Of a DNA stretch of 13,059 bases, positions 1 to 6,000 are shown one piece after another; the first letter of the stretch is position 1, and each line of letters begins with the position of its first letter. The stretch is taken from the NCBI GenBank assembly GCA_034717975.1, contig JAYEMF010000098.1, positions 1-13,059 of the forward strand, read 5' to 3'. Made by a program: the position numbers. The stretch comes from Campylobacterota bacterium (GTDB lineage: Bacteria; Campylobacterota; Campylobacteria; Campylobacterales; Sulfurimonadaceae).

Positions 1-3000
1 CCGGACGACCACAACTTCTTCCAGAGTAAACTGGTCTATCAGGTCCCTCTCTACACCGGCGGGCAGATCAGCGGCTATACCGAGATCTCCCGTGCCATGG
101 AGAAGATGAAACAGCTTGACAAGGCAGATGTGCTCAGTGAAAAGGTCTATCAGACACGCAAAAGCTACTACGATATGGCTCTTTTAGAGAGTTCACTGGC
201 CAATCTGAAAACAATTCTTGCCAACATCATAACACTTGAAGACATGATCGACACCATGATTGCCGAGGGGTATGCCAAAGAGGTTGACCTGCTTGAGATC
301 AAAGCCAAAAAGGCCAATGTCATCCGTCTGGTCAATCAGATGACATCCAACCAGAAACTTCTCTATCACTTTTTGAGTTTTCTTCTCGATCAGGAAGTCA
401 AACAGATCACTCTGCCCGCTTCGGAAGTGCCAATGGTTGCACTCGATAACGTGACTATCTTAAAACGCAACCTCGATATCCAAAAAGCTGAGACCGGCAT
501 GAAGATCCGCCGCGAAATGGTAAATGTCTCTGAAGCCGGCTACCTTCCCGAAGTTGGCGCTTTTGGTGAGTTTGGCACGGCAGACGACACCTTCTTGGGT
601 GATGCGAGTGATCATAAAGCCTATACTGTCGGGGCACAGCTCACCTGGAACCTTTTCAGCGGCGGGACTGACTCAAGTAAAATCGAGCAGGCAAAAGTTG
701 AAGAGCTGAAAATGAAAACGCAGCTTGATCTCGCTAAAAAAGGGATCGCACTGAGACTTGCCCAGATCCGTACCGAGATCGAAAGCTACAACGGAGAGAT
801 AAGCAGTCTTGAAAGCGAGCTTGAACTTGCCAACAAGATCTATGAGAGCTATGAGACCCGTTACCGGGAAAACCTGGCATCAATGAATGATGTCGTTATC
901 CAGCAATCACTGCAGATTGAAAAAATTCTTGCACTGCAAGTCGTAAAGAACAAACGAAACGAGCGTGTATTTGCGCTTGAAGATTTAGCCAATGGAGCCC
1001 AATAGATGAAAAAAATCCTACTCACCCTACTCTCGACAGCCGTCGTTCTCCTTGCAGAAGGACTGACCCTGGCCGGTACCGTCATCTCCGATAACGAGAA
1101 GATGATCACCAGCCGTTACATGGGCTTTGTCACGGAAGTCAAAGCCTCTGAAGGAGAACGTGTCAAAAAGGGGCAACTCCTCTATACGATCGACTCCAAA
1201 GAGATCGACTCGGCTATCTCCCGTGTTCAGCTCGGTATCTCCCAGGCGCAGCTGATGCTGCAGATGAATGAGAATCAGCTCAGTAACGTCCTGCTCAACC
1301 TGGCCCGGCACAAACGCCTGTTGAAAAAGAACATGGTCTCCAAATTTGAAGTCGAACAGCTTGAACTGGCAGCAGCCAACCTTCAGGATATGGTCACCAT
1401 CAGCAAAAAGCAGGTCGAGCAGGCCAATGAGCAGCTCAAAGAGGTGAAAAACCAGTATAAGTACCTTCGTATTGTCGCACCGAACAGCGGTGTGATCGTT
1501 GCCAAAAACATCAAAGTCGGTGAGATGGCAATGCCGGGTATGCCGGCATTTGTCCTCTCTGACCTCAATGACCTGAAGATTACTGCCGAAGTAGCCGAAA
1601 ATGATCTTCAATCCTTCAAGTACGGACAAAAAGTCAATGTCCAGATACCTTCTGTCGGACTTGCTGCAGTCGGTAAAGTTTCTGCCATTATCCCAAGTTC
1701 CAACCCGATGACGCACACCTTCCGGATCAAAGTATCATTCAAGCCTGGCAAGCATACTGTCTATCCGGGTATGTATGCGACCATCAATGTCAACTAAAGG
1801 CTGCTAATGGAGACAAACAACAGTTCCTATCAACCCAAAGATTATGCCGGGAAGATCGCCAAAGCCTTTCTTAGAAGCTCGCTAACGCCGGTCCTGGGTG
1901 CATTCCTGCTTGCTATCGGCTACCTCTCCTTGATGGTCATGCCGCGTGAAGAGAACCCGCAGATGGTCGTCAGCGGTTCAACGGTCATCGTCGCCATGCC
2001 GGGGGCTACCGCCAAAGAGATCGAAGAGGTCATCGTCAAACCGCTTGAGCGAAAACTCAAAGAGATCAAAGGGATCGAACACATCTACGGCACTGCTATG
2101 GATAATGTCGGTGTGGTCAATGCTGCCTTCTACATCGGTGAGGAGAAAGCGGATTCAAATCTCAAGATCTACGACAAGATCATGCAGAACATGGATATCT
2201 TTCCAAAGACCATTATGCAGCCTATCATCAAACCGCTCGATATCGATGTTGACATCCCGATCGTCTCAGTCGCCTTCTACTCCAACAACCCGGATATGGA
2301 TGAGACCGAACTTTACGACAAAGCCAAACAGATCCAGCACCATGTCAACGGTCTTGACAATGTTGCTGTTACAGCACTCAAAGGCGGGCATAAACACCAG
2401 TTCAATGTTTTGGTCGACCTGAACAAGCTGACCGGGTACAACCTCTCTCTGGGACAGATCACCCAGTCCATCCAGGCGGTTGCCTACAGTGTACCGGCGG
2501 TTAAAAACCGTACAAAAGAGAATGAGATCGTCATGGTCGGCATCAAAAATGCCATCGACGATAAGCGGGATATTGAAAATATCATCGTCGCACAGTATAT
2601 GGGCTCAGCAATCTATCTGAAAGATATTGCAACCGTTGAAGACTCCTACAATGTACAGAACTTCAAATCAGCCCAGGTCAGCATGCAGACAGAAGACGGC
2701 ACGTTTACACCGCTGCAGGATCAGGTCACGCTCACTATCTCAAAACTCCAGGGGACCAATGCCGTAATTATTGCCGAAGCGGTTAAAGATGAGCTTGAGA
2801 AATATCAGGAGCTTATGGCTGAAAACGGCATCAGTTATGTGATTACCCGAAATGACGGGGAACGGGCCAATGAAGCGGTCAATGAACTGGTCTTCCACCT
2901 CATTCTATCGATCATCATCATTGCCATCTTGCTGATCTTTGTCCTTGGATGGCGTGAATCACTCATCGTTACCTTCAGTGTCCCGGCGATTCTGGCGATC

Positions 3001-6000
3001 ACCCTCTTCGTCGCATACATTACCGGTCAGACGATCAACCGGATCACCCTCTTCGCTTTCTTGCTGAGTCTTGGGCTCCTGGTCGATGCGGCGATCATCG
3101 TAATTGAAAATATTCACCGCCACCACCACAGTCCGACTGCGGCCAAGAGAAATGAAGATGAACTGATGATCGAGGCAACCGATGAGATTGGACCACCGAC
3201 CAACATCGCTACGCTGGCTATCATCCTGACCATGGTGCCGATGTCATTTGTCGGAGGCATGATGGGACAGTTTATGAAACCGATCCCGGCCAATGTCCCG
3301 GTCGCCCTGATCGCATCGCTCTTTGTAGCCTATATCTTTACGCCGTACCTGGCAGTCAGACTGCTTAAAAAACCAAAAAACCAAGAAGGAGCGCACTAAT
3401 GCTTGACAAGTTTGAAGCAATATTAAAAGCTGGGCTCCAAAGTAAATTAAAAAAACAGCTTGCCCTGTGGGGAACGCTCCTCGCGTTTATCCTCTCGGTC
3501 ATGATGTTCCCGGCTGAGATCGTTCTGGCAAAGATGCTGCCAGGCAAGAACAATGACACCTTCAATATTTATGTCGATCTGGCAGAAGGAAGCTCTATCC
3601 ACCAGACGAAACAGGTGACTGACTGTGTTGTCGGCTTTGTTCAAAAAGAGAAAGAGGTACTCAATACCGAGGTCTTTCTAGGAGAGGGTTCGCCGCTTGA
3701 CTTTGCGGGTCTTATCAAAGGCTCACACTTTAAAAACAGTGAAAATGTGGCTGAAGTCGTACTCAACCTGACTAAAAAGCATGACCGCAGCGAGCCATCG
3801 TACATGATGGTTCAACGTATGCGCCCCCAGATCCAGAGCAGTTGTGAAGCCCTCTACCCCCAGACCAAGATCAAGTTTGTTGAACCGCCGGCAGGACCAC
3901 CGACAATGGCAGCCGTTGTTGCCGAAGTCTATGGCAACAATGCCAAAGGCATCCGCCATCTTGCCGACCGTGTTGAAGCTGTCTTCAAAAAGACCGATGG
4001 ACTGGTAGATATCGATGTGATGCAGGATGCTGTCTATGATAAATTTGAGATCGAGGTCAACACCATCAAGATCGCCAAGTCGGGTCTAAGTATCAAACAG
4101 GTCAACGACATTCTCTATCTTGCCTTTGAGGGGATGGGTGTTGCCGTCAAGAACAGTACTGCCTATAATGATCAGATCGCCATATTTCTGACCCTGAGTG
4201 AAAAGAGCAAGAAGTTCACTAAAAAAGACAAGCGGGCCATCGAGCAGAAGCTTTCAAGTCTCCGCCTGATGAACAAGATGGGAATGATGGTGCCGATCAC
4301 GGAAGTCACCACACTCAATCCGGTCAAGTCCAATCCGATGATCATGACCAAAAATCTGCACCAGATGGCAAATGTCGTAGCCGAGACCGATATGGTCTCT
4401 CAGGTATATCCGCTGATGGATGCCCGCAATATGATCTTAGATGAGTTTACCGATGAGTATGAGATTACGAAAACCGGTCTCTTCAACCTCGAATTCAAAG
4501 AGATCGAGACCGGTCAGTTCTATCAACTGCTCTGGGATGGTGAGATGGAAGTCACACTTGACACTTTTGTTGAGCTGGGTGGCGCATTTATCGCTGCCCT
4601 GGTCCTTATCTTCTTGCTGATGGTCATCTACTATAAAAGTTTTGCCCTGAGTGGGATCGTACTGCTTGGAAGCTTTCTCTCCATCATCGGGGTGATTGTA
4701 GGACACTGGATCATGGACCTCTTTACACCGGATACTTTCTTTTTAACTGCCACTTCCCTGATCGGCTTTATTGCCCTGATCGGAATCAGTTCACGAAACT
4801 CTCTGCTCCTCATTGACTTTACCAAATCATTGATGCTCGATAAAGGGATGAATAAGATCGATGCCCTCGCTCACGCGGCAGCAACTCGCGCCAAACCGAT
4901 CTTTCTAACCGCTGCGGCCATCATTCTGGCATCGACACTGCTGGCATCTGATGCGGTCTTTGGCGGACTGGGTGTCGCCTTGATCTTCGGGACGATTGCA
5001 GCTGTAGTCGCCTCACTCATCATCGTCCCTGTTCTACTTGAGATGAGTGATCTGGACAGACACTTTTCTCTATAAATCCATCTTTACTAAAATCTGATAC
5101 GAAGCACTGCTTTGTATCACCATCTCCCCTCTTAAGCGCCAAAATTATTACTTTTTGATTATTTTTGACAACATCATTCAAGAATTGGCTCTGTTAATTG
5201 CCGTTTTTTATAAAAAATAAGTATAATAATCCACTATTTTAACGCTAAAAATTCAACAACTAAGGTCACACATTTTGAAATCATTCTTATTGATGCTTAT
5301 TACCCCTGCACTTTTTGCATTAACACTGCCGGAGATGGTACAAAACACCCTTGATTCAAATCCAAATATGCAGCGTGAGATCAGCAACTATAAAGCGGTC
5401 CGCTATGACCTTGATAGAGCTGATGCCGGTTATAAACCAACCCTTGATCTCACCGGTGGCATTGGTATGGAACATACAGAGAAAGATTATGATGGTGCCC
5501 AGCCCGATGTTGATGAGGACCTGACCCGTAAAGAGGCAAGAATCGTAGGTACTGAGAACCTCTTTCAAGGTTTCCAGACCAAATATGATGTTATCGAGCA
5601 AGAGGGACGCATCGATGCTTCCCGTTATACATCCATTCAGGAAGCCAATACCCTCGCCCTGCGTGCCTCTGAAGTCTATATTGCTGTTTTGAAGCAAAAA
5701 GCCCTGCTTAACCTGCAAGATGAGAATGTTAAAACCCACGAGCGTATCTATAAAATGATCCGTGAAAAAAATGCTGCCGGACTGGGAAGACGTTCAGATA
5801 TGGAACAGACAGAGGGCCGTCTTGCACTGGCCTATGTCAATTACATCTCTCAGCAGAACAACTACCAGGATGCGATGATCAACTTTGAGCGTATCTATGG
5901 CGAGATGCGCAGTGCCAGCTTGCTTGAAGAGCCGAATGCCCCTGCACTGCCGGCCAATACTCTTGAAGCGTTGGAAAACCTCGCAGAGATCTACAATCCG

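Follow-up and report, generated by a model that had tools for sequence, protein, structure and literature searches.

Organization of the locus

The window analysed here is a stretch of 13,059 nucleotides from a Campylobacterota bacterium of the Sulfurimonadaceae (contig JAYEMF010000098.1). The ORF scan shows an operon in the order outer-membrane factor, adaptor, RND N-half and RND C-half, all on the + strand (Table 1). The survey's finding was that the RND transporter of this operon is encoded by two half-size genes, and the scan returned their coordinates, lengths and strand exactly as given there; Pfam likewise bore out that the halves match complementary stretches of the ACR_tran profile, with OEP and HlyD_D23 genes upstream. 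The N-half contains TM1-6 and the first large periplasmic loop and ends just past TM6, and the C-half begins with an amphipathic segment and contains TM7-12 with the second large periplasmic loop. The transporter is not a single chain of about 1,000-1,100 aa with both pseudo-repeats (12 TM helices and two large periplasmic loops). Each half exceeds the ACR_tran (PF00873) gathering score of 28 bits, and jointly they cover the whole profile. The OEP and HlyD_D23/RND_mfp genes lie directly upstream of the RND halves, as in the operon of a tripartite system.

Table 1. Features of the split RND operon in the window.
Feature	Position	Strand	Evidence
Outer-membrane factor (TolC/OEP family), 3' part, 5' end lost at contig end	1..1005	+	Pfam OEP, E 8.9e-28
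Short periplasmic adaptor, 263 aa	1006..1797	+	HlyD_D23, E 8e-30
RND N-half, 530 aa	1807..3399	+	ACR_tran profile 5-497 of 1021, E 2e-75, 254.7 bits
Asp427 codon, TM4 motif LLVDAAIIV, N-half	3085..3087	+	Asp in 35/35 split rows
Shine-Dalgarno-like AAGGAG in 3' end of N-half gene, 7 nt before C-half ATG	3386..3391	+	Sequence
TAATG stop/start overlap joining the halves	3397..3401	+	One-base overlap: stop 3397-3399, ATG 3399-3401
RND C-half, 558 aa	3399..5075	+	ACR_tran profile 517-1016 of 1021, E 1.2e-36, 126.4 bits
Arg466 codon, TM10 motif GISSRNS, C-half	4794..4796	+	Row counts (see text)
Arg497-Ala498-Lys499 codons, TM11 motif TRAKPIF, C-half	4887..4895	+	Row counts (see text)

The NCBIfam profile RND_permease_2 (NF033617) is covered at positions 10-495 by the N-half and 504-1004 of 1009 by the C-half, with scores of 214.6 and 97.8 bits, respectively, against a cut-off of 1250. 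For the HAE-1 profile TIGR00915, the scores are 178.6 and 78.2 bits against a cut-off of 940. Even the summed half scores are far below these cut-offs, which marks a divergent subfamily. The solved relative nearest to the N-half is 7m4p (residues 14-500, E 7e-35), and those nearest to the C-half are TriC (6vej, residues 525-1004, E 4e-13) and MexK (E 5e-13). Solved relatives of the AcrB/MexB/AdeJ type align over residues 14-500 for the N-half and about 525-1026 for the C-half. A SecD/SecF identity of the halves was considered and rejected, the scores being weak (26.1 bits for NF046001 against 500, and 20.9 bits for TIGR00966 against 160). The same genome also encodes five full-length RND genes with frames of 1030-1058 aa, so there is no general fault in the gene calls of this assembly.

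Junction of the two half genes

The two genes meet in the sequence GGA GCG CAC TAA TGC, whose TAATG layout is typical of translational coupling. Among the 49 split loci compared, the half ORFs overlap in 41 (by 1 nt in 17, 4 nt in 14 and 8-14 nt in 10) and are separated by 0-11 nt in 8. The distances of 2-82 bases between the halves in the survey's finding were measured from the end of one alignment to the next; the reading frames overlap or abut. A separate ATG, GTG or TTG start is present in almost every C-half, and an SD-like purine motif lies 4-16 nt 5' of this start in 40 of the loci. Alignment with fused genes places the break in the TM6-TM7 linker.

A different reading of the junction is that recoding, by a programmed frameshift or stop read-through, yields a full-length protein and that the two ORFs are only apparent. 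An A-AAA-AAC heptamer at 3375-3381, 16 nt before the stop, would allow a -1 shift into the C-half frame; since it falls within a 10-codon stretch where that frame is already open, an occasional -1 slip giving a fused product could occur in the window. Read-through could occur at the four of the 49 loci where the halves share a frame with one stop between them. However, the frame offset is variable, with the halves in different frames at the other 45 loci (+2 in 37 and +1 in 8), and in 18 loci no more than two codons of open C-half frame precede the C-half start (0 codons in several). The start codons and SD-like motifs of the C-halves, and the lack of a single conserved recoding signal across the 49 loci, also argue against recoding, which we consider very unlikely. 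The concern about read-through that accompanied the survey's finding is thus largely answered, with the four same-frame loci remaining, and two separate genes are the preferred reading.

Distribution in the Campylobacterales

The comparative sample comprised 200 other genomes of the Campylobacterales from 26 families. A half-size N-half frame is present in 115 of these genomes, from 17 families, which bears out and enlarges the earlier count of 18 in 30 genomes. The carriers are a broad set of sulfur oxidisers and their relatives. The 150 matches listed fall into two size classes: half-size frames of 433-609 aa hold 125 of them, the window's own included (46-100% identity; the shortest, of 433 aa, is cut by a contig end), and frames of 1077-1181 aa hold the other 25 (42-51% identity). 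The C-half directly follows the N-half in all 48 other loci with enough sequence to tell, namely 29 of 29 close loci and 19 of 19 distant loci with room for it, and the OEP-adaptor-N-C order is conserved in 30 of 30 close loci. Full-text literature searches found no description of a split AcrB-type pump.

Half-size genes could also be decaying pseudogenes, a full-length RND gene having been broken by mutation in the genome or the lineage. Half-size RND matches outside the split clade do look like decay, being sporadic singletons on short contigs or lone broken copies; for example, 28 of the 30 loci checked among relatives of the 559-aa representative P0162 have frames of 1,100 aa or more. An internal stop is also present in the N-half of one relative of the split clade (L073, genome G097). 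In contrast, the split state is retained with both halves intact at 46-81% identity over 17 families, the functional residues are invariant, the junctions are orderly, start codons and SD motifs being in place, and nine genomes of the sample carry two split paralogues. These observations bring the probability of decay close to nil and point to a conserved two-gene state.

Origin of the split

Trees were rooted on the other RND genes of the same genome. All three trees recover the split genes as a single clade: support is 100 and the stem 0.52 for the N-half (36 rows), support is 100 and the stem 0.81 for the C-half (35 of 35 rows), and in the IQ-TREE analysis of both halves combined SH-aLRT is 100 and the stem 0.67 (14 of 14 rows). 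The sister group of this clade consists in each tree of fused Campylobacterales genes, and at least three further fused layers enclose it, with the qualification that the stems are long, that treekit gave a long-branch warning among the outgroup rows and that the root is never certain. The position of the split clade within fused lineages indicates a single old gene fission and not a pre-fusion survivor. The fused sisters (18 loci, L039-L056; representative P0124) are collinear with the split pair and 37-50% identical over both halves, and their single frame of 1077-1179 aa has about 10 more linker residues. The order OEP-adaptor-RND is seen in 16 of these 18 loci, no OEP match being found in L039 and L056. 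Except in the linker, the alignments contain no clade-specific indel of more than 8 columns that separates split from fused genes.

The two genes might instead be surviving tandem duplicates from before the fusion, ancestral to the AcrB-type pumps. Homologous repeats split exactly at the repeat boundary would fit such an origin, as would the uncertain root, long stems and long-branch warning noted above. However, the N-halves and C-halves each group with the corresponding halves of fused genes, the nearest relatives (42-51% identical) are fused Campylobacterales genes, and each of the three trees nests the split clade within several fused layers. Survival from before the fusion would also need four or more independent fusions, all at one position, compared with one fission, and is exceedingly unlikely; one derived fission of a fused ancestor is favoured. 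Of the two evolutionary options offered in the survey, the state before the duplication-fusion is rejected by the trees, whereas its undoing, as a single fission, is favoured.

Charged residues in the membrane

The proton relay of AcrB comprises the TM4 pair D407 and D408, K940 in TM10 and R971 in TM11. In the split pump, Asp427, which we take to be the equivalent of AcrB D407, is invariant in alignment A3. The next residue, presumably at the D408 position, is Ala in the window; of the 35 split rows, 27 have Ala there and 8 have Asp. Arg466, which we assume to occupy the position of K940, is Arg in 34 of 34 lettered split rows, in all 18 fused sisters and in 19 of the 20 wider representatives, and is aligned to Arg in TriC and MexK. 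In TM11, Arg497-Ala498-Lys499 is taken as the equivalent of the R-x-R971 region, with Lys499 presumably matching R971; in the 19 rows with complete C-halves, Arg497 is always Arg, and Lys499 is Lys in 18 and Arg in 1. On these assignments D407 is kept, and D408, K940 and R971 are replaced by Ala, Arg and Lys, respectively. As judged from the alignments, a charged network is present in the split pump, but it differs from that of AcrB. The AcrB D408A variant is reported to be non-functional in PMC5516257; with Ala at the equivalent position, the relay of the split pump must differ from the AcrB relay. The charged residues are also divided between the chains, the N-half alone carrying the acidic TM4 residue and the C-half alone the basic residues of TM10 and TM11.

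Modelled complex of the two halves

The modelled complex is one alpha-beta pair consisting of N-half residues 14-525 and C-half residues 10-497, without TM11-12. The ipSAE value is 0.76 in each of three runs, compared with 0.03 for the best control; among solved complexes 116 of 157 reach the ipSAE mark applied, and among mismatched pairs 2 of 215 do. The interface has about 300 contacts, with at least 95% contact agreement among the runs and a partner pLDDT of 78-79, and includes residues 424 and 427 of the N-half and 461-463 and 465-466 of the C-half. Since AcrB-type structures have already been solved, the success of the model may only reflect likeness to them.

The halves could also act separately, for example as homodimers of 6-TM subunits, or only one of them could be needed, with no AcrB-like heteromer. 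This is favoured by archaeal half-size RND homologues, presumably self-associating, which are said to be described by Tseng in 1999 and in TCDB. It is opposed by the strict adjacency and congruent trees of the halves, by the division of the acidic and basic residues between them and by the gap between heteromer model and control, and is very improbable. A heteromer of the two halves is the preferred reading, and conservation, coupled junctions, congruent half trees, divided charges and the complex model together uphold the survey's view of a conserved natural two-gene pump of the AcrB type.

The short periplasmic adaptor

The adaptor in the window has a Sec signal peptide without a lipobox Cys, a beta-barrel, a lipoyl domain and a long alpha-hairpin, and does not show the four-domain build of RND adaptors. 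The membrane-proximal domain is absent by alignment, by TIGR01730 coverage and in the AlphaFold model. The score for TIGR01730 (RND_mfp) is 117.3 bits against a cut-off of 94.9, with coverage of only positions 15-244 of 322. The AlphaFold model (pLDDT 92.3) comprises the barrel, lipoyl domain and hairpin only; its best match in the fold search is MacA (3fpp, TM 0.79), and EmrA chains are also among the matches. Aligned with the adaptors of the fused sisters, which retain the membrane-proximal segments, the short adaptor lacks about 20 residues at the N-terminus and about 64 at the C-terminus, and the adaptor length is 237-273 aa beside split genes and 327-348 aa beside fused sisters. This domain loss is a feature additional to those observed in the survey.

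Section 7.3 of PMC8277102 links the loss of the membrane-proximal domain to transporters without periplasmic domains. EmrA-type adaptors have the same three-domain beta-barrel/lipoyl/hairpin architecture and, according to PMC8277102, serve such transporters, whereas the partner in the split pump has full RND periplasmic domains. With this combination of adaptor and partner, the coupling may differ or need a further partner. On a more tentative reading, the fission, the adaptor domain loss and a burst of sequence change (a stem of 0.5-0.8 substitutions per site) share one branch, which would suggest a linked change in pump assembly or coupling and not a neutral gene break.

Comparison with known systems

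The AcrB/MexB/AdeJ-type HAE-1 systems (AcrAB-TolC-like) share with the split pump the PF00873 fold family, an operon with adaptor and outer-membrane factor, the TM4 Asp and basic residues on TM10/TM11. However, their protomer is one polypeptide instead of two, D408 in TM4 and Lys in TM10 stand where the split pump has Ala and Arg, and the split-pump adaptor has neither the membrane-proximal domain nor a lipid anchor. TriC (TriABC-OpmH, 6vej) and MexK share the Arg at the TM10 position, but are single chains of about 1,020 aa with low identity to the window halves, and TriABC has two full adaptors. In the MdtB2C heterotrimer, the RND pump body is formed from two different gene products; however, MdtB and MdtC are each full-length with 12 TM helices, and the difference lies between protomers in MdtBC and within each protomer in the split pump. 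As an accessory of the Sec translocon, SecDF is monomeric and has neither adaptor nor outer-membrane factor. MdtB and MdtC are named in PMC8277102, and PMC4139356 describes SecD/SecF as an RND-superfamily protomer that many bacteria encode in two neighbouring 6-TM genes and others in one fused gene.

Proposed mechanism and implications

We consider it likely that the four-gene operon encodes a tripartite RND exporter with a two-polypeptide protomer, which arose by a single fission early in the Campylobacterales. A fused gene of about 1,100 codons would have been broken once in the cytoplasmic TM6-TM7 linker at that time, and the half genes would have been kept as a neighbouring pair since. The overlapping stop and start and the internal ribosome-binding site probably lead to coupled translation, which would deliver the halves side by side in similar amounts. 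The N-half would supply TM1-6 and the PN/DN-type periplasmic loop, and the C-half TM7-12 and the PC/DC-type loop, the two packing in the model like the pseudo-repeats of AcrB. Homology to trimeric pumps suggests a body of three alpha-beta pairs with (alpha-beta)3 stoichiometry. The putative proton-carrying charge network would extend across the subunit interface, with Asp427 (TM4) facing Arg466 (TM10), together with Arg497 and Lys499 (TM11). The soluble long-hairpin adaptor without a membrane-proximal domain would dock on the pump via its beta-barrel only. We infer expression, a 1:1 ratio of the halves, trimer formation and transport, and the assembly would carry out proton-driven tripartite export of the RND type.

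Efflux in Gram-negative bacteria relies mainly on AcrB-type pumps, whose two pseudo-repeats have, to our knowledge, always been studied within one chain. Genes commonly undergo fission at domain boundaries, and this, together with the SecD/SecF precedent in the same superfamily, tempers the interest of the split. More tentatively, and with rather less than firm confidence, the pumps described here may represent an undescribed old clade of envelope-spanning RND pumps in most non-host-associated Campylobacterales families. Its distinct architecture would combine an obligate alpha-beta protomer, proton-relay residues on separate chains, a single TM4 Asp with a TM10 Arg and a soluble adaptor without a membrane-proximal domain, changed in a linked manner on one branch. 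The adaptor pairing challenges the view that RND pumps require the membrane-proximal domain. The split also suggests, as far as can be read from sequence, that the TM6-TM7 linker is dispensable and that a proton relay is workable across a subunit interface. In this stable natural split, each half can be separately tagged, mutated, titrated and swapped, and the fused sister genes in the same order are a ready-made comparison. This feature would provide a natural system for asking what each half contributes in AcrB-type pumps.

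Organization of the pump operon

The pump operon encodes an outer-membrane factor (OEP), an adaptor and an AcrB-type RND transporter that is divided between two abutting genes, the N-half and the C-half. The survey's finding of two half-size RND reading frames is borne out: both are present where it had placed them, and Pfam and NCBIfam agree in assigning them complementary halves of the family profile. Five ordinary RND genes, with frames of 1030–1058 aa, lie elsewhere in the same genome. In the NCBIfam comparison, multidrug-type models scored above metal-type models for the two halves, with no model reaching its cut-off. 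The flanks of relatives were also searched for substrate clues, and the neighbours there vary (EF-P, a FapA_N protein, an Mrp/ParA ATPase). Our best reading, which we regard as quite likely, is that the operon encodes a tripartite exporter of the RND type. Its protomer would pair an alpha with a beta chain, translated from coupled genes, and would probably assemble as (alpha-beta)3. The sequences themselves establish the split and how old it is, the change from fused to split, the build of the junction, the distribution of the charged residues over two chains and the absence of an adaptor domain; coupled translation, stoichiometry, proton drive and transport are inferences.

Downstream of the pump genes lies a 609-aa protein that combines a complete TolC-type outer-membrane channel for type I secretion with an OmpA-like domain for peptidoglycan binding at its C-terminus. 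A type I secretion set (7104–13057) adjoins the operon, and its large tandem-95/Big_9 repeat protein is likely a secreted adhesin substrate. These downstream genes showed no linkage to the pump operon in the relatives whose flanks were compared.

Features of the pump operon and the adjoining type I secretion genes (nucleotide positions in the window; residues for parts of the 609-aa protein)
Feature	Position	Strand	Assignment
OEP gene, 5′ open-ended	1–1005	+	Pfam OEP
Adaptor gene, 263 aa	1006–1797	+	Pfam HlyD_D23
RND N-half, 530 aa	1807–3399	+	Pfam ACR_tran, profile positions 5–497 of 1021, E 2e-75
RND C-half, 558 aa	3399–5075	+	Pfam ACR_tran, profile positions 517–1016, E 1.2e-36
609-aa protein	5275–7104	+	
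TolC part of 609-aa protein	residues 15–425		TIGR01844, 249 bits vs cut-off 225
OmpA-like part of 609-aa protein	residues 504–598		PF00691
LssB-type ABC permease/ATPase	7104–9248		957 bits
HlyD adaptor of type I secretion set	9245–10576		
Small LuxR/GerE-type regulator	10576–11136		
Large tandem-95/Big_9 repeat protein, start only, cut by window end	11204–13057	opposite	

Junction between the two halves

The two halves meet in the sequence CAC-TAA-TG, in which the stop codon (3397–3399) runs into the ATG of the C-half (3399–3401), and AAGGAG stands seven bases ahead of this ATG. Of 49 split loci, 41 have the N-half stop overlapping the C-half start; the overlap measures 1 nt in 17 of them, 4 nt in 14 and 8–14 nt in 10. 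In the other eight, 0–11 nt separate the two; for one locus, L016, the script took a TTG start, where the sequence has an ATG that overlaps the stop by 8 nt. In 40 of the 49, an SD-like motif stands ahead of the C-half start. The frames of the two halves differ in 45 loci (offset +2 in 37 and +1 in 8) and are the same in four, and the C-half frame is open for two codons or fewer ahead of its start in 18/49. This pattern fits two separately initiated genes, whose translation would be coupled; a conserved frameshift or read-through signal does not fit it. The window also holds an A-AAA-AAC slippery-type heptamer (3375–3381), which falls within the short segment in which the C-half frame is open ahead of its start, so that a −1 slip would enter that frame and may yield a rare fused product in this window alone. 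The heptamer is part of two A-rich runs that encode a Lys-rich N-half tail (3367–3381), which is not kept in relatives. The break itself falls in the cytoplasmic linker after TM6, where the fused sisters (single-frame RND genes of about 1,100 aa from the same order, loci L039–L056) have about 10 extra residues.

Conservation of the split

We used the N-half as a query on 200 other genomes of the order. Among the 150 matches listed, 125 (the window's own included) lie in half-size frames of 433–609 aa with 46–100% identity, the shortest of which ends at a contig end, and the other 25 lie in frames of 1077–1181 aa with 42–51% identity. Counted by hand among the matches listed, the half-size N-half occurs in at least 115 other genomes from 17 of the 26 families. 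The phylum-level sample contained genomes of the same order only and so adds just the absence of an N-half match at E 1e-90 from two families, f26 (0/46) and f12 (0/43). A length-restricted search, with 8,000 candidates scored, returned at least 3,816 proteins of half size (E 1e-20 or better). In public annotation they appear under Sulfurimonas or Sulfuricurvum as plain ‘efflux RND transporter permease subunit’; named relatives are of this kind too.

The gene order OEP, adaptor, N-half, C-half is kept in 30/30 close loci. The C-half directly follows the N-half in all 19 of the more distant split loci with room for it, and both halves lie within one frame in 18/18 loci of the more distant, fused kind. 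Locus L073 (G097:C59) carries one in-frame TAA within the matched N-half; no other copy in the split loci examined is clearly broken.

Nine genomes have two half-size copies among the matches listed, the additional one being a second split paralogue, for which five loci were fetched (L057–L059, L062 and L063, from genomes G015, G085, G176, G152 and G019). Four of the five are without an upstream OEP gene and have a short convergent adaptor gene (264–273 aa, n = 4) just after the C-half; the C-terminal tail of the N-half is about 50 aa longer in two of the five.

Direction of evolution

The alignment comprised 35 split rows (halves concatenated), 18 fused genes of the order, and 20 full-length and 8 half-size representatives found by searching 1.84 billion sequences that each stand for one cluster at 50% identity, with the genome's five other RND genes as the outgroup. 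The trees took 16 of the 30 close loci, without L011, L012, L014, L015, L017, L023, L024, L027, L029, L031, L032, L033, L036 and L038; L071 was kept out because only its N-half is present. With FastTree, the split genes form one clade of support 100 from either half: the N-half columns place 36 rows in it, one of them a metagenomic representative (stem 0.52), and the C-half columns 35/35 rows (stem 0.81). The same clade appears with IQ-TREE (LG+G4, both halves, 39 rows), holding 14/14 split rows with an SH-aLRT of 100 and a stem of 0.67. In all three trees its sister is the fused genes of the same order, with a joint clade support of 100, and in each tree it is nested within at least three further layers of fused genes.

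The survey had offered two evolutionary options for the pair, a state before the internal duplication-fusion or a state after undoing it. A pre-fusion relic would require repeated independent fusions, and the nesting within fused layers leads us to reject this option and to favour the second. A single fission, from fused to split, explains the tree topology.

Half-size representatives also occur beyond the split clade (P0123, P0133, P0144, P0145, P0162, P0180 and P0268). Among them are singletons on short contigs, a partial record and a representative whose cluster also contains a 1068-aa member. P0162 is a broken copy of a gene that is otherwise full-length, with frames of at least 1,100 aa in 28 of 30 related loci. 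These cases look accidental, and on those followed up (all but P0133 and P0268) the idea of recurrent conserved fissions was dropped.

Charged membrane residues and model of the complex

The N-half aligns with solved pumps over their residues 14–500 (best 7m4p, E 7e-35), and the best solved matches of the C-half are TriC (6vej) and MexK. The TM4 motif of the N-half, LLVDAAIIV, contains Asp427 (D427), which is present in 35/35 split rows. The following residue, which we take to occupy the position of D408 in AcrB (AcrB numbering), is Ala428 in the window (codon 3088–3090); across the 35 split rows it is Ala 27 times and Asp 8 times, and the same position holds Ser in 12/18 fused sisters and Asp in 15/20 wider representatives. 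AcrB D408A is reported in PMC5516257 to be non-functional. In the C-half, Arg466 of TM10 is present in 34/34 split rows, and Arg is likewise found in TriC, MexK and the whole wider subfamily; in TM11, Arg497 is present in 19/19 rows and Lys499 in 18/19. The charge arrangement of the subfamily with the TM10 Arg must differ from that of AcrB. Invariant alignment columns support the conservation of these charged residues, which presumably form the proton path of a proton-driven pump. With D427 in the N-half and Arg466, Arg497 and Lys499 in the C-half, the acidic and basic partners are carried by separate polypeptides.

We modelled the complex from N-half residues 14–525 and C-half residues 10–497 with separate alignments, without TM11–12 (1000-residue limit). 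The ipSAE value is 0.76 in 3/3 runs vs 0.03 for the best control, a mark that 116/157 solved complexes and 2/215 mismatched pairs reach. The model has about 300 contacts, with at least 95% contact agreement between runs and a partner pLDDT of 78–79, and its predicted interface includes N-half residues 424 and 427 and C-half residues 461–463 and 465–466. Because AcrB-type structures are already solved, the pass of the model reflects its resemblance to them and does not independently prove that the halves bind.

The short adaptor

With its 263 aa, the adaptor of the window carries a Sec signal peptide that has no lipobox cysteine. Split-linked adaptors measure 237–273 aa (all 41 delimited by script) and those of the fused sisters 327–348 aa (18/18). 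Compared with the latter, the short adaptors lack both segments from which the membrane-proximal domain is built, one of about 20 residues behind the signal peptide and a C-terminal one of about 64. The AlphaFold model (27 sequences, pLDDT 92.3) contains only a β-barrel, a lipoyl domain and a hairpin whose two helices are 42 residues each; in a fold comparison it matches MacA best (crystal structure 3fpp, TM 0.79). Section 7.3 of the 2021 review PMC8277102 describes membrane-proximal domains as missing from adaptors whose transporters have no periplasmic domains, and by the rule in that section an RND partner for a short adaptor is unexpected. A compensating insertion in the split RND body was considered and set aside, since the alignment scan of split vs fused bodies found, besides the linker, no indel block longer than 8 columns. 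The fission and the loss of the adaptor domain map to the same branch; with a single event, the two cannot be called statistically associated.

Relation to known systems

In the open full-text literature, beyond which lie TCDB, subscription journals and supplements, we found no account of a tripartite RND transporter in split or half-size form, and passage searches gave none in PMC8300790, bioRxiv 10.1101/775932, PMC8277102, PMC6744504 and PMC12749989. Within the same superfamily, SecD/SecF is a precedent for a split (PMC4139356). MdtB2C is a heteromer of full-length subunits. A gene split of this sort is a common evolutionary event; the present natural case is clean and widespread, the change in its adaptor is unexpected, and fused sisters are at hand for comparison.
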